The notes beneath the pieces were generated by a model. The model had not been told where the DNA came from and made no database searches. It worked only from the letters and a program-made list of their open reading frames with translations. Position numbers and translations under genes: made by a program. Below are positions 1-15,351 of a stretch of 15,351 nt of DNA, piece after piece. The DNA lies in IMG/VR virus record IMGVR_UViG_2609459769_000006. One strand, written 5' to 3'. Within the stretch, counting starts at the first letter, position 1; every line of letters starts with the position of its first letter. Origin of the DNA: a virus. Taxonomy: Duplodnaviria; Heunggongvirae; Uroviricota; Caudoviricetes.

Positions 1-879
1 TGAGGCGCTCTGTCCCGCTGCTGTTTCAGAAGACTTAGCGTTCGTCTCGGACGTTTTTGCCGCCTTCGCGGAATTTCCTGCCGCCGTTGCCGAGGAAGCT
101 GCACTACTGGCACTTGATGATGCATTCGTTTCTGAAGATTTCGCTGCCTCTTTTGAGGCCGCCGCACCCCGTGCCGAGGTGGCAGCTTCTGACGCCTTCG
201 TGGTCGCTGTGGATGCAGAAGTGGCTGCCGATTTTTGTGATGCTGCGGCATTCGTTTCTGACGTTTTCGCGGCACTGGCGCTGGTAGCTGCCGCGCTTTT
301 TGATGACTCTGCAGCAGCAGCACTTTTTGCTGCTTCACGGGCCTTTGTCGATGCCGTTCCTGCGCTGGAAGACGCTGACTGAGCCGACGACGCGGCCTGT
401 CCGGCTGACGTGCTGGCGGCACGTGATGAGGCTGCAGCATCGGTTGCATGAGTTGCCGCCTCGCTGGCTGATGCACTGGCATCGCTGGCTGATTTTTTCG
501 CGGCTGCCGTATTCTGTGCAACCGCGGAGGCGTTACGTGACACCTCTTCTACCATCTGCTCAAAGCGGCGCAGTGCCTCCGGTCGGACATCATCCTCCGT
601 CATGGCACCGAGAAAATCATTCAGCGTACCTGGTCTGGAACCTTCATAGACGGTAATGGTCCCGGCATGTGAAGGCGGAAAACCTTCAACCAGCAGGGTG
701 ACGCTGTACTGACCATGCTCAACATCCATGCTGTAACGTCCGGCTTCATCCGGATTTTCAGAGGCCACCGTGTTCACCACCACCGTGCTGCTGGTTCGTC
801 TGGCCTTCAGCACAATGGTGCAGTTCTGTACTGGTTTTCCTGTGCCATCTTTAAGCACGCCAGAAATTTTTACTGTCAT
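1..879 (-). CDS. stf: Side tail fiber protein Stf, N-terminal 293 codons (partial; C-terminal part lies beyond window start)
   Basis: Minus-strand frame from ATG at 879-877 translates MTVKISGVLKDGTGKPVQNCTIVLKARR... followed by Ala/Ser/Thr-rich repeats (AAKTSETNA...), which I recognise as the lambda Stf N-terminus; frame checked by hand at both ends and is open to position 1. Not in the ORF track because no stop lies in the window. Confidence 0.85.
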   Translation of the reverse strand, partial: MTVKISGVLKDGTGKPVQNCTIVLKARRTSSTVVVNTVASENPDEAGRYSMDVEHGQYSVTLLVEGFPPSHAGTITVYEGSRPGTLNDFLGAMTEDDVRPEALRRFEQMVEEVSRNASAVAQNTAAAKKSASDASASASEAATHATDAAASSRAASTSAGQAASSAQSASSSAGTASTKAREAAKSAAAAESSKSAAATSASAAKTSETNAAASQKSAATSASTATTKASEAATSARGAAASKEAAKSSETNASSSASSAASSATAAGNSAKAAKTSETNAKSSETAAGQSAS

Positions 880-893
880 ACTTTTCCACCAAT

Positions 894-924
894 AAAAAAA
901 GCCCGCAGCAGTGACGCCACGGGC
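894..924 (-). terminator. Putative intrinsic terminator between lom and stf
   Basis: Plus strand A-run 894-900 followed by GCCCG...CGGGC inverted repeat (901-905 / 920-924); on the minus strand this reads as a hairpin followed by a T-run, downstream of lom. Long loop, so only moderate. Confidence 0.4.
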
Positions 925-1030
925 TTCAGGACAGTGTAACTTTACGTTTCCTCAAACGCAGTTCACCCCATAAGGTGGATGAACCTGCGTATCATAACAA
1001 TATTTACAGAAGATAAATCGGCGTCTGTTG

Positions 1031-1630
1031 TCAGAAACGGTATCCGATACCAACAATAAATGCATCCGTTCGCCAGTCGCCACTACCGGAACCTTCATAA
1101 GCAAGGTCAATGGTCACGGATTCGGTCGGGTTAAACTGCACGCCAGCCCCCCACGCCAGAGACGTGTTGCTGTGGCGACCGTCATCACTTCCGGTCAGCA
1201 CATCGTGCGTTTTCCCCTTGTTGTCAGTTACGCGGAGATAATCCCCGGAGAAAGTCGACACACGGCTGTAAGCCACACCCGCCATCGCATACGCGCTGAA
1301 CCATTCATTCACGCGTACAGACGGCCCCGCCATCACGCTGAACCAGCGGTTACGCACGGAATCTTCATGCCAGCGGGTATCGCTGTAGCGCGTTTTTTGC
1401 TCATCCTCAGCATTGGCATAACTGAAGGACGTAATCAGCCCCAGCGCGTCCGTAAACTCATAACGGTATTTCACGTTAATCCCGTTCAGATCATCACTAC
1501 CGGGAACGTTCGTCGAGGCATGGAGATACCCCGCGCTCAGCGTGGACTGATGTTCTGCTGCACTCGCTGGCGTAGCAGCGGCGACCTGCCAGACTACTGC
1601 GGACAAAATAACAGCACATAATTTACGCAT
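1031..1630 (-). CDS. lom: Lom outer-membrane protein (Ail/Lom family beta-barrel)
   Basis: 199-aa ORF MRKLCAVILSAV...HQSTLSAGYLHASTNVPGSDDLNGINVKYRYEFTD...AYEGSGSGDWRTDAFIVGIGYRF: signal peptide plus near-identity to my recollection of lambda Lom, ending in aromatic residue typical of OM beta-barrels; GAGAGG SD upstream of ATG 1630. Confidence 0.9.
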   Translation of the reverse strand: MRKLCAVILSAVVWQVAAATPASAAEHQSTLSAGYLHASTNVPGSDDLNGINVKYRYEFTDALGLITSFSYANAEDEQKTRYSDTRWHEDSVRNRWFSVMAGPSVRVNEWFSAYAMAGVAYSRVSTFSGDYLRVTDNKGKTHDVLTGSDDGRHSNTSLAWGAGVQFNPTESVTIDLAYEGSGSGDWRTDAFIVGIGYRF

Positions 1631-1654
1631 AATTACCTCTCGCTTTTCTGCAAT

Positions 1655-1678
1655 AAAAAAGGCGCCATTTCTGGCGCC
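1655..1678 (-). terminator. Putative intrinsic terminator between J fragment and lom
   Basis: Plus strand A-run 1655-1660 then GGCGCCA-tttc-TGGCGCC perfect 7-bp inverted repeat (1661-1678); on minus strand a hairpin followed by T-run, located after the J stop (1698) and just before the lom RBS. Confidence 0.5.
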
Positions 1679-1697
1679 CGTATCTGGGTTATAAAAT

Positions 1698-3068
1698 TCA
1701 GCTAATCGTGATGCCTGCAGTGGCTTTCTTCATCACCACAACCAGCAAATCGCTGATACTTGCTGTGGGATACCAGTTATTTACCAGCCATGCTGACACC
1801 GAAAACTCCAGTGTCATGTGACCGTGACCGGCAGGCATATCAATAACACCACTGTAAATCAGCGTATTATCCAGCGCGGTACGGTTATAAATTTCAGCAC
1901 CGTTTTTCCGCACTATCAGACGGCATGAGGAGTAAATATCAGTATGCTCTTTCTCATGTTTAGCGCCGCTGAATGCCACCGCCGGAATAACAATCTGCCG
2001 GTCAAACGGCTGATCGTCATAAACCCTGACGGTAATGGTTCCTGATGGCCACCGCTCCGGTGCACGGGAGTCCCGGGGGAAAGCTTTGCCCACTGTTTTA
2101 ACGAGATCGCCTTCAATCTGGTTCGCGGACAATTTTCCCAGAACCCGACAGTTCTCGTTAATCGTGACGTTGTTGAGCGTCCCGGAGTTCGCATTCACGT
2201 TACCGCTGATATCGGCATTTTTCGCCGTCAGCCGCCCGTCCGGTGTCAGGGAAAATGCCGGAGGATTACCGCCGCTGGTAATGGTGGGAGCCGTCAGATA
2301 TTTCAGGAACACTTCATTCATAAATATCTGATCGCCCTGACCAACAAACATCGGCTTTGTGTTGCCATTCGCAGGATTAATCATCGCAATCCTGTCTGCC
2401 GCCAGCAGCACCTGACTCTGCATTCCTGCTGGCGTATTCTCAATACCGGCACCGATACCCGCAATATAAAGGCGTCCGTCCTGCATCTGCTGCAGTTTCA
2501 CGGCCCACATGCTGTTCAGGTTATTATTTGTATCAACCTGAACTTTCTGTATCTGCTGGATTGCCGCACTCTGATTTTCCAGTTTTTTATTGACGGTCTG
2601 CGTGATTTCATTGCTGACATTCGTAATGGACGTCCTGATTTCAGCCAGGTCCGGCGCAAGCTGACCGTTATCAATCTGCGTCCACAGCTCCTGGGCCAGA
2701 TGTGTTTTCCCGATTTCTCCTTTGAAAAAATCCAGGTAACCTTCCGCATCATCGCTCGCCCGACCGACAGCCTCCACGAATGCCGATTTGCCAACAGTAT
2801 TCACACTGCGGATATAAAAATAATAATCATGGCCCGGTTTGATATTGATACTGGCAGCTATCCAGTACAGCGCCGAGCCAAGATAGCGGGCTGCGGTTTC
2901 AACCTGCCTGATATCCGCAATCCGCTTTTCCGAGAACCAGAACTCAAACTGTATCCGTGGTGGGGTTGTCGAACTCATCCGCCACCGCAGGACCGTTATC
3001 TGACTAACCTGTATTTCAAAATCAGAGAGGACCGTCGTAAGGCTGCACGGGGAGAGTAATTCAATGAC
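1698..3068 (-). pseudogene. J: Host-specificity/central tail fiber protein J, C-terminal fragment (5'-truncated remnant, about 456 codons of open frame)
   Basis: Translation contains [24 protein letters not shown]...[50 protein letters not shown]...[45 protein letters not shown], recognised as the C-terminal region of lambda J. Frame is open upstream only to a stop at 3069-3071, so roughly 670 N-terminal codons of a full-length J are absent; first ATG is at 2978. Confidence 0.75.
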
Positions 3069-3408
3069 TCAAAACTATGAACTGATTGTGAAAGGGATCC
3101 GCAATTTTGAGAATAAAGTTACGGTAACTTTAGCGTTACGGGACAAAAAACGCTTTGACGGTGAAATTTTTGACCTGGACATCTCGCTGGACCGTGTTGA
3201 AGGTGCCGCGCTGGAGTTTTATGAGGCAGCAGCCAGAAGGAGCATCAGACAGGTCTTCCTGGATGTTGCTGCCGGGTTATGTGAAGGGGATGAGCAGTCG
3301 CCGGAAAAGCGCCCCGTAATTTTAGAGGCGCAGGATGTGTTGATAACCTACAGAGGAAAACTACCGGGAATAATTACGGGTTCTCTGAAGAGTCCGCCGA
3401 AATGGTAA
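3064..3408 (+). CDS. Hypothetical protein (114 aa), sits at the J truncation junction
   Basis: ORF with GGGGAGAG SD-like sequence 7 nt upstream of ATG 3064; soluble-looking protein; no family recognised. Confidence 0.45.
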
Positions 3409-3646
3409 TTTTACCAGCATATTTTTCATCCAGTAATACAGCAAGCCGCCTGAAAGAGTCTTGTTGTTCCTGAGACCATTTGGGATTGCATGATTCAAAC
3501 TGGATTGATGCCAGCGTTGATTGCATCTGTTCCCTTGGAATTGAGAATGCCAGATATGAGAAGGCGACGGTAAGGGTATTCACGTCTTCCCGAAGCCTGG
3601 AAATGCTGTCGAGCAACTCCTGTAGAGAAATGGTGTTATTGTCCAT
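3374..3646 (-). CDS. Hypothetical protein (90 aa)
   Basis: ORF with GAGGAT SD 6 nt upstream of ATG 3646; 3' end overlaps the 3' end of the convergent 114-aa ORF by 35 nt; no family recognised. Confidence 0.4.
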   Translation of the reverse strand: MDNNTISLQELLDSISRLREDVNTLTVAFSYLAFSIPREQMQSTLASIQFESCNPKWSQEQQDSFRRLAVLLDEKYAGKITISADSSENP

Positions 3647-3751
3647 AAATAATCCTCATGATTGTATTGACCTGTTAGCAGCCTGAGGCAACAGGCTGGA
3701 ACTGATAAACATATCCAGGGCTCAGAAACCGATAAATCCTGATAAATATCC

Positions 3752-4315
3752 ATGAACGCAAAAATCAGATACGGCCTGTCGGCTGCCGTTCTGGCGCTGA
3801 TTGCCGCTGGTGCGCCTGCGCCTGACATTCTCGACCAGTTTCTGGATGAAAAGGAAGGTAACCACACCACGGCATACCGTGATGGCGCGGGTATCTGGAC
3901 CATCTGCCGCGGTGCCATCCTGGTGGATGGCAAACCTGTCGTTCCGGGCATGAAGTTGTCGAAGGAAAAATGCGACCGGGTTAACGCCATTGAGCGTGAT
4001 AAGGCGCTGGCATGGGTGGAGAAAAACATCAGAGTGCCATTGAGTGAACCCCAGAAACGGGTGATCACCGGGATTGCGTCAACGCCTTCTCCGGATCGGG
4101 ATGGTGACATCCTGGAGCCGGAGGGCGCGGAGTTTGGCAGTGCGATCCCGTTTCTCTGGCAGCATGACCATTCCCGCCCGGTGGGGCAGTGTACGGTACG
4201 CCGGGTCAGCGAAGGGCTGGAAATCACGGCAACACTGGTGAAGCCCGTACCGGATATGCCGTCGCAACTGGCTGCCCGGCTGCCGGGCCAGCCACTCCAT
4301 TCAGTTTCGGAGTAA
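3752..4315 (+). pseudogene. Chimeric remnant: SAR-endolysin (GH24 phage lysozyme) N-terminus fused in frame to a prohead protease (HK97-type) N-terminal fragment
   Basis: Residues 1-105 (nt 3752-4066): signal-anchor-like LSAAVLALIAAGA followed by lysozyme catalytic E-8aa-D-5aa-T pattern (EGNHTTAYRDGAGIWT). Residues from about 106 (nt 4067-4315): IASTPSPDRDGDILEPEGAEF...PFLWQHDHSRPVGQ, resembling the N-terminus of caudoviral prohead proteases. Too short for either full enzyme; no holin upstream; no clear SD. Confidence 0.55.
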
Positions 4316-5309
4316 CCGTGGCACTGCCGGCGGTGAACACCAGCTCCAGCGTCTGCCAGTCGTTACTGTAATTCCCGAACTCGCCCAACTTTGTGTTTCC
4401 TGCTTTCCTGTGATGCATCAGATTCAGTTTGCCGTCTGTGGTCTGGGTGAAGAACGACATCAGGAACGGGTTACCAGTCCCGGTCATCGTCACGACGTCA
4501 GGTAACGCTACATCGGTATACAGATAAATTCCCAGACCGAACTGGTTGTTGGTCAGTGCGCCTGACAGTCGAAACTTACAGCTCAGTCTGCCACCCCGTG
4601 TCAGCAGGGAGACTGCGTCATCCACCGGATGCATCAGGGACCAGGTTTTATTGCTCTGCTTGGTAACCTTAAACACACCATCTTCCAGCGCAACACTGCC
4701 GCCGGTGATGGTCCAGCCCTGCGCAGCAGCCTCTCCGGCTGTCGGCAGCAGGGAGACTGTACGAACGGATGTGTCACCATCAGACGGCCCCGATGGCGTG
4801 TCGCCGCCGGGCGAGGGTTTAATCTCCGGTGCGGTACCGCTGATGAAGGCGCTGGTTCGACCAACTGCGTTCAGAATAGCGGTTGCCAGGCGATCCGAAA
4901 TAATGCCCCTGCGCGCCCATGAACTGAAATGTGTCGGACGATTTGACGATACCCAATTACCATTACTACGGGATTGCGCGCCGTAATAACCTGCATCAGC
5001 AATATCCGGGTCTTCTGCCGGTAAGTTGGTGGGCGTGTTGTTGCCGTTACCGTCGGTCATGAACGGCACAAAGAAAACGTTGTCGCTCTCCCTGTTTTTG
5101 TACGCGCCGTAGACGGAGTCATACTGTGTGCCGTATGTGTTTTTCCAGTAATACGTCGTGTCGCCACAAATCCACGGTACAACTGCAGCACTGCCGCCAT
5201 GGCACTGCGCCGCCAGCCCGGCAAGGTCAGCACGGAACTGCTGTACCATTGCAAGAAATGCTGCTGGCTGCTGGGCGTACCAGAACAGATCGAAGTAATA
5301 CCCGCACAT
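4224..5309 (-). CDS. Hypothetical two-domain protein (361 aa): Cys/aromatic-rich N-domain, Pro/Ser/Gly linker, C-terminal Gly/Thr-rich probable beta-rich domain
   Basis: Longest and most protein-like ORF in this GC-rich stretch; start ATG overlaps the stop of the upstream 92-aa ORF in a TAATG arrangement (5305-5309), suggesting translational coupling; linker PEIKPSPGGDTPSGPSDGDTS. No family recognised. Confidence 0.6.
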   Translation of the reverse strand: MCGYYFDLFWYAQQPAAFLAMVQQFRADLAGLAAQCHGGSAAVVPWICGDTTYYWKNTYGTQYDSVYGAYKNRESDNVFFVPFMTDGNGNNTPTNLPAEDPDIADAGYYGAQSRSNGNWVSSNRPTHFSSWARRGIISDRLATAILNAVGRTSAFISGTAPEIKPSPGGDTPSGPSDGDTSVRTVSLLPTAGEAAAQGWTITGGSVALEDGVFKVTKQSNKTWSLMHPVDDAVSLLTRGGRLSCKFRLSGALTNNQFGLGIYLYTDVALPDVVTMTGTGNPFLMSFFTQTTDGKLNLMHHRKAGNTKLGEFGNYSNDWQTLELVFTAGSATVTPKLNGVAGPAAGQPVATAYPVRASPVLP

Positions 5310-5587
5310 TACCTCCAGATCCGTTGCTGGAATGTGCGGGACGGACGCGCTGGCCGTTCTGAGTAAGGGAGCCTGACGGAGATTATCCAGTGACGGTAGT
5401 CGAGGCTAAGGGCTTTTTTAACCTCGCATCCGCGCCCGCGGTAACACTGAATGAGCCATTCAGCCTGTTCTTCGGTGCAGGGGTCGTGCTGATACCAGTC
5501 AGATTTGAATGCATGAGAACGCCGCCCGTGCCTGCTGGCAGGGGCGGCAGAGTTATCCGAATTGTAAAATTTGGTATCGTGCGCCAT
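5309..5587 (-). CDS. Hypothetical protein (92 aa), first gene of a coupled pair
   Basis: ATG at 5587; stop overlaps start of the 361-aa ORF (TAATG). Contains Cys-containing segment DPCTEEQAEWLIQCYRGRGC. Weak SD. Confidence 0.5.
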   Translation of the reverse strand: MAHDTKFYNSDNSAAPASRHGRRSHAFKSDWYQHDPCTEEQAEWLIQCYRGRGCEVKKALSLDYRHWIISVRLPYSERPARPSRTFQQRIWR

Positions 5588-5854
5588 CTGTTTTCTCTGC
5601 TGGCGCAGCAGGTGCCAGTTGTTCAGGCTGACGTATGAAGTATAAATAAACTGGCTCCAGTGTAAAGCCCCACCTTAATGGAATAAAAACCAAACAACAG
5701 ATTGCTGGGATAAAAATACAACGCTTATTATTAAAAGCGGTTAGATAAATTAAATTTTAATGTTATGCAAATCTGCCAGATTAGCATAATATTTCATTTG
5801 AAAACCGCTGAAATAACAATCTTATCGGGATTAATCATATTAAGGTGAGTAAAT

Positions 5855-5941
5855 ATGGAAAACAACAAATCTGCACATTACGCTCCTTTTTTATCTGTAA
5901 TACTTTTTGTATTTTGTTGTGTATGGGCGGTATTTTTATAA
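5855..5941 (+). CDS. Candidate small hydrophobic peptide (28 aa, MENNKSAHYAPFLSVILFVFCCVWAVFL)
   Basis: Not in supplied ORF track (below size cutoff). AAGGTGAG SD at 5842-5849, 5 nt before ATG 5855; polar N-terminus then 17 hydrophobic residues; stop TAA 5939-5941 followed 20 nt later by a hairpin terminator; lies in AT-rich intergenic DNA convergent with the protease gene. Codons verified by hand. Confidence 0.3.
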   Translation: MENNKSAHYAPFLSVILFVFCCVWAVFL

Positions 5942-5961
5942 AACACACCCACAAATAAATC

Positions 5962-5981
5962 AAACCCGCTACAGCGGGTTT
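5962..5981. terminator. Putative bidirectional intrinsic terminator
   Basis: Perfect 8-bp inverted repeat AAACCCGC-taca-GCGGGTTT; T-rich sequence follows on both strands (plus: gatttatat; minus: gatttatttgtgggtgtgtttt). Positioned between the protease stop (5996-5998) and the small plus-strand ORF stop (5939-5941). Confidence 0.5.
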
Positions 5982-5995
5982 GATTTATATAGTTG

Positions 5996-8260
5996 TTATA
6001 CGGAAACTGGCACACGAGCAGGCAATGGATAGTGAGCCCAGTTATTAGCATTTAAAGCTCTTACGCCATCAGCATAAACTTGTGTGTTTCCATCTAATGA
6101 TTTTAAAGTTACTACAATAGTTACAGGTAAAGGCTCCATTAAGGCCGGTTCATTCGCTCTCAACGTTGTTTTAGCTTGAAGAGCCCAGTTACCCGAAGTA
6201 ATTCCTTTATTAAATGCCTTGCGATGAATTTTTACTGGTGACCACTTTCCACCATGCTCAATTTGAGCTCTCTCATATCCAGATTGACCGTTTTCTCCTT
6301 CCATAGGTACTTTTCCTTTTATAGTATTATTCTCAATTAAGCCAAAACTTAGCTCTACGTTCGCGCGAACATATTCACTGCCGGCATTAGGGTTCAGTGG
6401 TGGTGCATATGCAGCAGTAATTACAATCTCACCTTTAAATTTTCCATTTTGAATAAGTGCCGATGGTATGGGATAGTTTTCCTTTCTCCACCTCACCCCA
6501 GGAACCAAGAATGTTTGGAAAATCAGAGTAAACCTATCATCACTATCATATAAGGTCTCAATAACCTCATTAGGAATTCCCGCTCCCAAATAGCGTCTTT
6601 CACTTGGCGAGTAATCAGGAGAAGATAATTGAGCGGAATGAATTAATAATGCTTTAATCAATGATGGTGAAACATTAAAGTCTGAATTAGTGGCTATTCT
6701 CTGCCATGTATGCGCAGCTAAACTTGCCACAATTGGAGCAGCAAAACTAGTACCAAAATTAGAGCAAAGCCTATTATCTGGCCCTACGACCTTTAAACTG
6801 CTTGCTCCTACATTCCAAGGTCTATGAACCCCACCGCCAGCATGGATTATATCTGGCTTTGGAGTAAATACAGGCCCAGGGCCACGACGAGTATATGGTG
6901 TCGGTGTTCCAATTTCACTTAAAGCATCATTAGCTTCCATATGAGAAACTGAACCAACTGTTAGTGCTCGGACTGACTCTCCAGGAGAGGAAATTAAATC
7001 AGCACCTCCAAGCGGATCAGGATTTGGCCATGTACGTATAGGTTCATCTACATAATTACCTGCAGCAACTACAAACAAAATACCAAATTTATCGCTGAGC
7101 CGATCTAACTCCATCGCAAAATCACTAAACATCTGCTCATTACATGGTCCGCCTCCCAAAGATAAATTCCAGACTTTTATATCTGGTCTTTTATTTACAG
7201 CATCTGCTAGCCTCAGAATTAAATCTGATATATAAGATCCATTTTCATCTAAAGCACAAACATCATGGATTTTAGATTTTGTATCAGGAATCCATGGATG
7301 ATTGTCATTTAAAAAATGAGCGCCTGATATCAATGAAGACACCATAGTCCCATGTTCATAACTCGTATCAGGAGGAATTACGTATGTTTCCCTACTCACT
7401 ACCCAAGGAGTAATTGTTGCCGCGATGGGGCTTACCCCAGTGTCAAATACAGCAACAATGGGTAATTCTTCTGATGGTACGGGAAAGCTATTTGTTTCAA
7501 TGCCAACAGAATCACTTACACTAACCGGGAATGCTGAATATTTTGGTTCTGGAATTAACGTTCTTATACCCGGGTAATCAATGAGAATGTCTAATATATA
7601 TCTATCATTTGGGGATAAATCCATTATCCTTAATAAGGGAAGACCACATTTTGGTCTAATCTCATCATATTTAACTCCGTGTTGTTCTAATATAGAAATA
7701 ACGTTTTCATAGTTGTTGTAAGTTGCATCTTCACCTGTGTACTCAAATAGTCGTACAAGGATGTTTGATGATTCAAACAAACCATCAGTGCCTCCTGGAA
7801 CCTTCCTATTCTCATCCCAAGGTTCAATGCGCTCAATCGCGCTTAGATTAGCCAAAATCGCTTTAATATTCCGATGTAAAATGACTGACTCTAATACGTC
7901 AAAACAGCCGGCATGAGCAGCAACCAACATTTCATCTATTTTGGCATGACCGGCATTTTGCAATCCAGCCTCTTGAGCAATTTTGTTCGGCCTATGCGTT
8001 TTGGCTATTCCCTGGTCTCTTAATTTGAAAACCAAAGTACCCAAGCTTCCAGGGTACTCTGAAAGTTTGGATTCTAAATAATGTTTACTGGTTGTTAAAT
8101 TTCTTACTAGCCCTTGTCTATATTCGGCTGTTACATCAACCAATACCTTTGCCCCACCGCCAGCGTTTACTATTGCACCCAAGTCACTACTGGAAAAAGG
8201 GATTCTTAACATTGGGTTTGTAACTTTTGCGTTACTAAACTGTGTACCCCTTCTGCTCAT
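5996..8260 (-). CDS. Large subtilisin-like serine protease (peptidase S8 fold) with uncharacterised N- and C-terminal extensions, 754 aa
   Basis: Canonical subtilase order and motifs: Asp in VAVFDTGV (D273), His in YEHGTMVSS (H303), oxyanion Asn in VVAAGN (N401), Ser in GTSFAAP (S505). About 255 residues before and about 195 after the catalytic domain with no recognised motifs. ATG 8260 preceded by AGGAG; start overlaps ATPase stop by 26 nt. AT-rich codon usage. Confidence 0.85.
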   Translation of the reverse strand: MSRRGTQFSNAKVTNPMLRIPFSSSDLGAIVNAGGGAKVLVDVTAEYRQGLVRNLTTSKHYLESKLSEYPGSLGTLVFKLRDQGIAKTHRPNKIAQEAGLQNAGHAKIDEMLVAAHAGCFDVLESVILHRNIKAILANLSAIERIEPWDENRKVPGGTDGLFESSNILVRLFEYTGEDATYNNYENVISILEQHGVKYDEIRPKCGLPLLRIMDLSPNDRYILDILIDYPGIRTLIPEPKYSAFPVSVSDSVGIETNSFPVPSEELPIVAVFDTGVSPIAATITPWVVSRETYVIPPDTSYEHGTMVSSLISGAHFLNDNHPWIPDTKSKIHDVCALDENGSYISDLILRLADAVNKRPDIKVWNLSLGGGPCNEQMFSDFAMELDRLSDKFGILFVVAAGNYVDEPIRTWPNPDPLGGADLISSPGESVRALTVGSVSHMEANDALSEIGTPTPYTRRGPGPVFTPKPDIIHAGGGVHRPWNVGASSLKVVGPDNRLCSNFGTSFAAPIVASLAAHTWQRIATNSDFNVSPSLIKALLIHSAQLSSPDYSPSERRYLGAGIPNEVIETLYDSDDRFTLIFQTFLVPGVRWRKENYPIPSALIQNGKFKGEIVITAAYAPPLNPNAGSEYVRANVELSFGLIENNTIKGKVPMEGENGQSGYERAQIEHGGKWSPVKIHRKAFNKGITSGNWALQAKTTLRANEPALMEPLPVTIVVTLKSLDGNTQVYADGVRALNANNWAHYPLPARVPVSV

Positions 8261-9389
8261 ATGCTCCTGACTCCTTCAGAATGTTTGAAATTACTCTTGA
8301 TGTAAGTTTGTACAAATTAGCAAGAACTCTGATAGAAAATAATTTTTTATCTTTAGAACGTAACCAACGAATTTCATCTTCGTAAGTGCTTAAATTTACA
8401 CCTTCCATAAGCGATTGCGCAAGATACAAACGCCTATACAATTTATGGTGATTTATCACACTTGCACCTTCAATAACTGCATCCCTACGTGCATCCAAGC
8501 TCACCTGTTCAATTATTGCTCCGGATAATCCCTCCGATTTTCTTGATAAATCACTTAAATCTAGATCGCTACATATCATATTCTTTAAACGATTTTTCCA
8601 AATTAACTCTCTCTGATGTATGTCAGGCAGAGGCATTGGAATTCTGAAGCTAAATCGCCTCCAGATTGCAGGATCCAGAAGTTGCTCATGGTTAGTTGAG
8701 GCAATAATTACCGTATCCTCTGATGCCGCATCCATATTCTGCAATAGTGAAATGACAACTCGCTGAAGCTCACCTATATCTCTCTCATTACCTCTTGCTC
8801 CAGCTAAAGCATCAAATTCGTCTAAAAAAAGCACTGATGGCCTCTGCATTACATAATCGAAAACCTGTCTAAGATTTTTGCTGGTTTGTCCCAATAAACT
8901 ACTAATCAAAGTATCGCAACGCACTGTAAGAAGTGGAAAATCTAAGCGGGTAGCGATGTACTTAGATAACATAGTCTTACCTGTTCCTGGCTTTCCATAC
9001 ACGAGCATACGACTCGGCAATGCTGCATCAGCTTTAACAAACTCATCATAACGTTGAACATTAGTGATAAACTCTTCAACACGGGTACTGATTGCTGCAG
9101 GCAGAAAAATCTCTGAACTGTCTAATTTAGGATAACTGACATCAACAGTGTTGAGTCGACTATCAATATCTACCGGTAATGAGCCCAGAGATATCCCACC
9201 TCCAGCCCTTTGAGCTCCTGCCAACGCCTGGGGAGCTCTAAGCAACCTTTCTCTTATCATTCTGGCTTGCTTGACCTCCCCTTTTTGTTCGAGCTTATCT
9301 GCCAGCAACCCAGCATAATTACTAGCCATCGAAGCATTTGCCTTTGTTGCACCTTCAATGATTTTTAACACTTCTGATAAATAATCCAT
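8235..9389 (-). CDS. AAA+ ATPase (classic AAA clade), 384 aa
   Basis: Walker A GKPGTGKT (res 132-139), Walker B VLFLDEFD (186-193), sensor-1 STN (231-233), second region of homology with arginine pair PAIWRRFSF (240-248). GGGAG SD 7 nt upstream of ATG 9389. 3' end overlaps protease start (operon). Confidence 0.85.
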   Translation of the reverse strand: MDYLSEVLKIIEGATKANASMASNYAGLLADKLEQKGEVKQARMIRERLLRAPQALAGAQRAGGGISLGSLPVDIDSRLNTVDVSYPKLDSSEIFLPAAISTRVEEFITNVQRYDEFVKADAALPSRMLVYGKPGTGKTMLSKYIATRLDFPLLTVRCDTLISSLLGQTSKNLRQVFDYVMQRPSVLFLDEFDALAGARGNERDIGELQRVVISLLQNMDAASEDTVIIASTNHEQLLDPAIWRRFSFRIPMPLPDIHQRELIWKNRLKNMICSDLDLSDLSRKSEGLSGAIIEQVSLDARRDAVIEGASVINHHKLYRRLYLAQSLMEGVNLSTYEDEIRWLRSKDKKLFSIRVLANLYKLTSRVISNILKESGAYEQKGYTV

Positions 9390-14831: not shown

Positions 14832-15351
14832 TTCACCCTCCTGAGGGTTGGTAATTAAGGAGTTCTCCACGGGTCAGGTGGAGTGCGTGCGCCGGACACG
14901 GGTGAACATCCGGCACTGACAGTTTACTGAAAGGATATGTCCCTGAAAAGTCAGGGCATAACGCGAAAGCGCACGGCGAAATTGGTCTCTCTGTACGGTG
15001 TCGTTAAATTTAGTTCGACCGTGCGCTTCCGGTTGTGGCAATCCGCGAAATGGTGCGGCGGTAAGTATGGCGGGGTTATTCCTTCCCCCGTTGAGGACAC
15101 CGGGTTGTCAGGTTGACCATACGCTTAAGTGACAACCCCGCTGCAACGCCCTCTGTTATCAATTTTCTGGTGACGTTTGGCGGTATCAGTTTTACTCCGT
15201 GACTGCTCTGCCGCCCTTTTTAAAGTGAATTTTGTGATGTGGTGAATGCGGCTGAGCGCACGCGGAACAGTTAAAACCAAAAACAGTGTTATGGGTGGAT
15301 TCTCTGTATCCGGCGTTAATTGTTAACTGGTTAACGTCACCTGGAGGCACC

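Follow-up and report, generated by a model that had tools for sequence, protein, structure and literature searches.

Is the 28-codon open reading frame (ORF) at positions 5855-5941 of this viral sequence a gene at all, and if it is, does it serve the defence genes beside it, a toxin-antitoxin locus, or the phage that carries it? The window, by which we mean the whole stretch of 15,351 nucleotides that was analysed, is a lambdoid prophage of E. coli whose minus-strand early operon contains a ydaT-like gene, replication genes, genes for DUF1627 and DUF977, iteA (8235-9389) and iteS (5996-8260). IteA (526 bits) and IteS (1041 bits) are recognised by NCBIfam equivalogs, which cover only these two large genes. 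The convergent neighbour of the ORF is ietS (annotated iteS), encoding a 754-aa S8 peptidase, and the ORF itself lies in the adjoining 408-bp spacer (5588-5995), beyond which are found a 92-aa rem-like gene (5309-5587) and a DUF968-type gene (4224-5309). Our analysis suggests that the ORF is a genuine gene in its own right and encodes a small membrane peptide, a reading to which we assign a probability of roughly 0.5.

The sequence itself and the list of ORFs agree on a plus-strand frame that runs from ATG at 5855-5857 through 28 sense codons (MENNKSAHYAPFLSVILFVFCCVWAVFL) to TAA at 5939-5941, and the initial annotation had both the coordinates and the peptide exactly right. The strong Shine-Dalgarno (SD) site that it had noted 5 nt before the ATG is also there: AAGGTGAG at 5842-5849 contains the core AGGTGA, a 6-nt match to the 16S anti-SD. 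A longer ORF is ruled out by an in-frame TGA at 5846-5848. Sixteen ORFs of at least 20 codons overlap the AT-rich spacer, and ORFs of such length are common there; when the 408-bp spacer was dinucleotide-shuffled 2000 times, however, only 1.6% of the shuffles had, on either strand, an ORF that starts with ATG, spans 25 codons or more and follows a 6-nt SD at the proper distance. The polar head and hydrophobic tail ascribed to the peptide are borne out by the mean Kyte-Doolittle values, -1.44 for residues 1-11 and +2.88 for residues 12-28. The hydrophobic segment, F12-L28, is only 17 residues long and reaches the C-terminus, which reads ...AVFL or ...ALFL, and the 28-aa product falls among small (<60 aa) hydrophobic peptides with a predicted membrane helix.

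Is the frame conserved? Related loci were retrieved from IMG/VR by a pattern in the upstream non-coding sequence, independently of the ORF. This yielded 126 loci, 3 of which are cut by contig ends, and in all 123 complete loci the 28-codon ORF is intact and free of indels. These 123 loci comprise 15 alleles and 13 peptide variants. The ORF is also intact in 8 further loci, from 7 complete E. coli genomes and 1 complete phage genome, and likewise in 19 more that were found by a degenerate codon pattern and include a third clade (L223). Thus the frameshifts or stops that, according to the initial annotation, would speak against the ORF occur neither in the 123 loci nor in the 8 further ones, and start codon, stop codon and length are invariant among the loci examined. 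An SD-like purine motif precedes the start in every clade, the variants being AAGGTGAG, AAAGTGAG, AAAGCGAG, AAGGTGGT and AAGGTAG, with the motif weakened in the AAAGCGAG form. Within the peptide, M1-E2-N3-N4, H8, P11, L13, S14, I16-L17-F18, C21, W24, A25 and F27-L28 are invariant, and F12 is changed in one locus only. Replacements are mostly of one hydrophobic residue for another (A/V, V/I, L/F; V/A/I/L/F), with less conservative ones at residues 5, 6, 9, 20 and 22.

The conservation of the ORF also stands out against its surroundings. Between the window and a divergent clade, identity runs at 87% over 5600-5670, 56% over 5671-5723, 93% over 5724-5767, 57% over 5768-5841, 82% over the ORF and 32% after the stop codon. 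Judged by these identities, the ORF is a conservation island of its own, set off from the sequence upstream by a poorly conserved stretch of 74 nt. In the most divergent group (~76% identity) the match spans 5708 to 5942 and ends at the stop codon. Among 65 haplotypes, 27 of the 87 ORF columns are variable without any real indel, against 47 of 76 columns plus 6 gap columns in the proximal leader, and 38 of the 44 columns downstream of the ORF vary.

Within what is a phylogenetically shallow sample, all sequences being from closely related Escherichia prophages, pN/pS is 0.32 in the ORF frame and higher in each of the other five; antisense frame -1 comes close (0.35), but it contains stops. A minimum spanning tree places 16 synonymous and 21 non-synonymous events in the ORF, where the null mean is 9.9 synonymous events (P=0.02). 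The codon-position bias of 5:9:13 is by itself not significant, and the probability that the frame would stay open by chance is ~0.34. Taken together, the comparative data put the ORF well beyond chance expectation, and we consider it quite probable that it is a real protein-coding gene and is translated. Part of the constraint is nonetheless regulatory rather than coding, since an AT-rich island upstream surpasses the ORF in conservation.

The ORF sits in a module of ~355 bp (5588-5942). A 291-nt query covering 5700-5990 found this module in 1177 of 5426 complete E. coli genomes (~22%), nearly always once per genome, with 1245 matching places in total, all but 3 of them chromosomal. Among the matches listed, none had an annotated feature under the module, so that the ORF was rightly called unannotated. 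Beyond these genomes, the module was found in Shigella flexneri and E. ruysiae prophages and in the genomes of four temperate phages of E. coli. Strains E. coli AR_0069 and WP7-S17-ESBL-04 have it at 100% identity, and phage vB_EcoS-683R6 is among its carriers. A scan of genome contigs with the upstream pattern gave no match, and one with a pattern for the ORF core gave 77 chance matches in addition to Shigella flexneri and E. ruysiae. A partial BLAST match (H95) that had been considered as a distant relative turned out to be an IS5 insertion into the leader and was rejected. An IS5 copy lies in the module leader of one locus from E. coli 3PT (L207, 2475-3398), between the conserved island and the SD, where it leaves the 28-codon ORF intact and severs it from the upstream region.

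If the ORF belonged with the protease genes, as the initial annotation had offered as one possibility, we would expect to find them together. The right-hand neighbour in 114 IMG/VR loci is, however, hokD in 89 cases, iteS in 13, a DUF1971-type gene in 9 and something else in 3; hokD thus stands tail-to-tail with the module in 78% of loci. In annotated examples the right-hand cargo is iteS, hokD, or a DUF1971 gene either alone or with Hok/Gef and KilA-N genes. On the left, where the head of the nin/Q operon is always found, that head is either rem-like/DUF968/RusA/Q or DUF1367/DUF1364/DUF1133, with the IMG/VR loci having DUF1367 in 68 cases and rem-like/DUF968 in 48. The ORF is oriented opposite to the flanking phage operons. 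Because both neighbours vary freely and iteS is adjacent in so few loci, the ORF, judged by gene order, is a fixture at the edge of a variable cargo slot and part of the phage backbone, and we hold it to be almost certainly independent of IetAS. The ORF is indeed adjacent to iteS, convergent with it, and shares a terminator with it in this window, which is what an accessory third component of the IteA/IteS island would look like from a single example. But neither consistent co-occurrence with IetAS nor membership in its operon was found, the ORF being on the opposite strand, and the homology boundary falls between the ORF and the cargo. Moreover, IetAS has been described as a two-gene, toxin/antitoxin-like defence system of a protease and an ATPase, to which the only component reported to be added is a helicase (PMC13069673). 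The accessory reading is therefore extremely improbable and, by the co-occurrence data, effectively refuted.

It is the other half of that early reading, a separate moron, that fits best, with the ORF real, kept, and independent of the cargo. The equivalent spacers of K-12, rem-hokD in Qin and ybcM-ybcN in DLP12, lack the module, so that it is present in some related phages (22% of E. coli genomes carry it) and absent from others, as one expects of a moron. Phage morons are autonomous inserts of promoter, gene and terminator that are expressed from the prophage. Like them, the module is a small unit opposing the flanking operons, and in this window a terminator comes after it. It differs from them in being a conserved fixture linked to the nin/Q promoter region rather than variable cargo, and in that its own promoter is only predicted.

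The terminator in question is a hairpin at 5955-5988, found by a terminator scan, that is bidirectional and common to the ORF and iteS. Its 16-nt arms (5955-5970 and 5973-5988) are 100% complementary, its core at 5962-5981 reads AAACCCGC-TACA-GCGGGTTT, and it lies 8-15 nt past the iteS stop and begins 13 nt after the ORF stop codon. In its stem core, AACCCGC/GCGGGTT, it is homologous to the 3' hairpin of hokD in other loci. A strong terminator is present at this junction and at some hokD junctions, but many hokD-linked haplotypes have a degenerate form and the divergent clade has none; the bidirectional terminator proposed at the outset is therefore real in this window and does not hold as a general feature. 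In hokD-linked copies (L229-L232 and many IMG/VR haplotypes) the hairpin comes 20-45 nt after the ORF stop and ranges from perfect (AAACCCGCCGAAGCGGGTT) to degenerate (AAACCCGCCAATCAGGTT). With the hairpin so often degenerate, a plus-strand transcript of the small gene would often read antisense into the 3' end of the hok mRNA (the fbi region), allowing for possible cross-talk between the two peptide genes.

A Phe-rich peptide whose stop codon shortly precedes a terminator hairpin might also be the leader peptide of a transcription attenuator, and sub-threshold Rfam matches to Phe_leader (24.9 bits, gathering 55) and Leu_leader (20.7 bits, gathering 50) point the same way. An attenuator, however, needs a gene to control, and there is no same-strand gene downstream, the next gene being convergent in all contexts. 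The terminator is not conserved with the ORF, and it is the peptide sequence that is conserved, not merely its codon composition. Gene order effectively refutes this reading, which we regard as very improbable.

Between the module's left end and the ORF lie several conserved elements. Pairing in the leader RNA would occlude the ribosome-binding site, as is partly shown by covariation. RNAalifold places a candidate anti-SD, UUCAUUU at 5793-5799 on the plus strand, in a helix with 5843-5849 in which 94% of cells are paired and one pair runs through an A-U > G.U > G-C series; since the helix contains 29 G.U cells and 0 A.C cells, it would exist only on the plus-strand RNA. This helix is supported in the main clade only, and the other clades are predicted to occlude the SD with different partners; in 4 of 5 clade representatives the predicted fold has most of the SD core paired. 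A small leader hairpin, H2 (5818-5832, plus strand, AATCT-TATCG-GGATT), has 79% of cells paired and shows covariation from T-A to C-G (AATCC/GGATT vs AACCC/GGGTT), with the third clade having ATTCC-GACA-GGAAT at the same site. For the leader structure as a whole, 87.9% of cells are paired compared with 30-41% in slid controls, and on covariation it outscores every one of 500 shuffles and every slid control, with the caveat that the structure was built from the very sequences on which it was scored.

Farther upstream is an imperfect palindrome, H1 (5760-5792, ATGTTATGCAAATCTG C CAGATTAGCATAATAT), whose outer 8-bp arms are nearly invariant and whose inner stem is swapped for different complementary sequences in three clades. 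Folded as the plus strand, H1 is the more stable in 11 of 16 variants, the commonest variant not being among them. Overlapping H1 is the AT-rich island (5724-5767), 88-131 nt upstream of the ATG. This is the most conserved part of the module, being 93-98% identical between clades whose adjoining spacers are 53-57% identical. Two other features were rejected, namely a complementarity between 5710-5719 and 5930-5939, which is AT-rich or low-complexity and unconserved, and a direct repeat at 5692-5702 and 5860-5870, which is low-complexity and absent in the divergent clade.

How might the ORF be transcribed? Our weight-matrix scan gives as the top-scoring plus-strand site upstream of the ORF a candidate promoter, TTGCTG-18-TATTAT (5702-5731, score 7.6), with a predicted start at ~5738. 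Its -10 (TATTAT) lies in the AT-rich island, and its -35 and spacing are lost in the divergent clade; the promoter scans found no convincing sigma-70 promoter conserved across all clades. On the minus strand, a candidate antisense promoter, TTTCCA-16-TATGAT (5834-5861), spans the start codon, and its -10-like hexamer keeps A2 and T6 in 61 of 65 haplotypes. A second promoter-like site on that strand (5812-5783) has an unconserved -35. Both resemble promoters at the level of consensus only, and we regard the 5834-5861 candidate as a weak one. No conserved minus-strand terminator or structure for an sRNA was found in the module. The hairpin at 5739-5722 was rejected as a minus-strand terminator, having a 5-bp stem in which variants give A.C mismatches on either strand, as was that at 5669-5653, which overlaps the invariant -35 and whose stem is not retained.

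The best promoter match in the spacer faces leftward, TTTACA-16-TATACT at 5666-5639 on the minus strand, and would drive the rem-like/DUF968 (or DUF1367) nin/Q operon. Both of its hexamers are invariant in 65 of 65 haplotypes, regardless of which gene follows. This invariance implies that, in these prophages, a conserved promoter placed downstream of a terminator serves the Q-antiterminator operon, which would then not depend only on read-through from the early operon, and it makes the small gene and the nin/Q operon divergent neighbours.

With such elements around it, could the ORF be incidental, and the module simply regulatory DNA or RNA? The module would then be a divergent control region for nin/Q, an insulator or terminator between early and late operons, or the source of a plus-strand antisense RNA that targets read-through or the hok 3' end. 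Its most conserved parts, the leftward promoter and the AT-rich island, are non-coding, H1 could be a protein-binding site, the nin/Q operon head always follows the module, and the open frame by itself is weak evidence given its chance probability. Regulatory function of this kind, however, would not account for a second conservation island that coincides with the ORF on the far side of a poorly conserved stretch, for homology to the divergent clade that ends exactly at the stop codon, or for the excess of synonymous changes in the ORF frame. Nor would it account for the invariant start, stop and length, for the purine motif before the start in every clade, or for an ORF without indels between flanks that have them. 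We therefore judge an incidental ORF to be improbable.

A complete type I toxin-antitoxin locus is another possibility, in which the peptide is the toxin and a minus-strand sRNA, started from 5861-5834 or 5812-5783, is the antitoxin; such an sRNA would overlap the leader or the start codon. The architecture of the peptide resembles that of ShoB and Ibs, the leader is long, conserved and structured with its SD occluded, the minus-strand -10-like hexamer is widely kept, hokD is the usual tail-to-tail partner, and an upstream island more conserved than the ORF could be expected if two overlapping RNAs co-evolve. But neither toxin homology in Pfam or NCBIfam nor an Rfam antitoxin match was found, the sole terminator-like minus-strand hairpin (5739-5722) has a short stem broken by variants, and H1 gives no preference for the minus strand. 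The repeat that might have served for pairing in trans (5692-5702 and 5860-5870) is missing in the divergent clade, and the -35 of the second candidate promoter is not conserved. A locus complete with its antitoxin thus appears unlikely.

The ORF would be an overlooked prophage gene for a small membrane protein, without earlier annotation. No profile match linked it to the toxin families Hok/Gef, Ldr, Ibs, TisB, ShoB, ZorO or DinQ, and searches of Pfam, NCBIfam and PHROGs at E-values up to 10 gave only chance-level matches (Sec20 0.17, the signal region of Lp6.6 0.05, an Rz-like protein 0.24). Rfam gave no antitoxin match, either for the spacer at an E-value threshold or for the whole window at the gathering threshold, the only relevant match being DicF, which is far away. 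An exact-sequence look-up of five peptide variants in a collection of 15 billion proteins returned no match. The peptide was not found in the literature searched, nor in data accompanying the Sakai sORF study, the study of the Enterobacteriaceae microproteome and Pro-SMP finder, and survey papers on the Pas sRNA and on Hok yielded nothing on it. If it is translated, a length under 30 codons would explain how the gene escaped annotation pipelines and protein databases alike. We also considered whether the tail could be a lipoprotein signal peptide and rejected this, since the lipobox [LVI][ASTVI][GAS]C before the invariant Cys21 is absent: position -1 is occupied by F, L, C, S or G, the nearest approach being LFAGC in a single clade, and the mature part after cleavage at Cys21 would be only 7-8 residues.

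ShoB and Ibs peptides begin with a short polar or basic segment and are hydrophobic from there up to the C-terminus, which in ShoB ends ...LLFL, and shoB-type loci have a long structured leader that limits translation. The ORF resembles shoB-ohsC and ibs-sib by its length (within 19-28 residues), its polar head and its hydrophobic C-terminal run, and by a leader predicted to occlude the SD; it differs in having no sequence homology or family match and no cognate sRNA found at its locus, and in being prophage-borne where ShoB and Ibs are core-genome. With hok/sok, in the form of hokD, it shares the character of a small membrane peptide gene, the same lambdoid cargo junction, and, in the 78% of loci where the two lie tail-to-tail, the 3' hairpin region. 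Hok, however, is ~50 aa and comes with mok/sok and fbi/tac elements, the 28-aa peptide is unrelated to it and occurs without hok, this window being one example, and K-12 hokD has no such neighbour. In size, in its single predicted helix, and in belonging to a class that gene callers overlook, the peptide is also like YohP, KdpF, AcrZ and MgtS. These are core-genome genes whose products usually have polar or charged residues at both ends of the helix, whereas here the helix extends to the C-terminus and the gene is phage-borne.

What would such a gene do? From the sequence, it appears most likely to be an independent micro-gene, or moron, for a tiny membrane peptide. We propose that the ORF is transcribed from its own promoter in the lysogen, on a plus-strand transcript that would begin upstream of 5760, probably at ~5738, carry a structured leader of ~115 nt, and end at the hairpin supplied by the convergent cargo gene. 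The pairing of 5793-5799 with 5843-5849 (in the main clade) would occlude the SD, so that translation would be throttled or conditional. The 28-aa product would insert in the inner membrane as an N-in, tail-anchored single helix, with the polar, K/H-bearing N-terminus in the cytoplasm and F12-L28 spanning to the C-terminus. Acting at the membrane, its effect may be a dose-dependent membrane perturbation, which by likeness to ShoB and Ibs is our leading guess; their architecture is why we rank a membrane-perturbing activity first and a modulator or exclusion activity next. That the peptide is toxic or membrane-depolarising when over-made is a tentative proposal, short of an even chance, and argued by analogy. 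That it instead binds or modulates a membrane protein without being toxic, or serves in exclusion, we consider doubtful. A new prophage-borne family of type I toxins (or Hok partners) with an RNA regulator, found in ~1 in 5 E. coli genomes, seems unlikely. If this were true, such a family, usually lying tail-to-tail with hokD where the late-gene regulatory operon begins, would affect prophage maintenance, induction timing or the exclusion of other phages.

Should the ORF be translated, it would constitute a conserved phage gene in ~22% of complete E. coli genomes. Its site is a strategic one, at the boundary of a hotspot for defence and toxin cargo and immediately ahead of the region that holds the Q antiterminator operon's promoter, and knowledge of the peptide's function might help to explain prophage stabilisation, lysis timing or superinfection exclusion. 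The ORF is in any case a practical landmark for the cargo slot, and overturns no concept.

Some further observations concern the left side of the spacer. Just downstream of the predicted leftward promoter, the minus strand has a hairpin GUCAG-CCUGAACAA-CUGGC (5608-5626), in which a U.G pair becomes C-G in one haplotype. At the head of the nin operon in K-12 DLP12, upstream of ylcH-ybcN (L006, about 6300-6330), the identical 9-nt loop CCUGAACAA is found on a different 9-bp stem, UCACCGGAG/CUCCGGUGA. Judging by these two cases, lambdoid nin/Q operons seem to begin with a conserved RNA element, of which the CCUGAACAA-loop hairpin would be an instance. The first ORF of the DUF968 operon, rem-like and 92 aa long (5309-5587, minus strand), matches no family in Pfam or NCBIfam.

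To the left of DUF968 (window positions 1-4315), the sequence does not go on into RusA/Q, unlike that of strains whose spacer is 100% identical (L001, L208). The plus strand there has holin-like, DUF1327 and partial lysozyme ORFs, and the minus strand has the C-terminal part of J (1698-2978) and Lom (1031-1630). This arrangement suggests a rearranged, probably defective prophage in which the small ORF and IetAS are still intact. At the other end of the window, in the prophage immunity/kil region, lies the DicF sRNA gene (15165-15216, plus strand; Rfam RF00039, 76.7 bits, E=9e-16).
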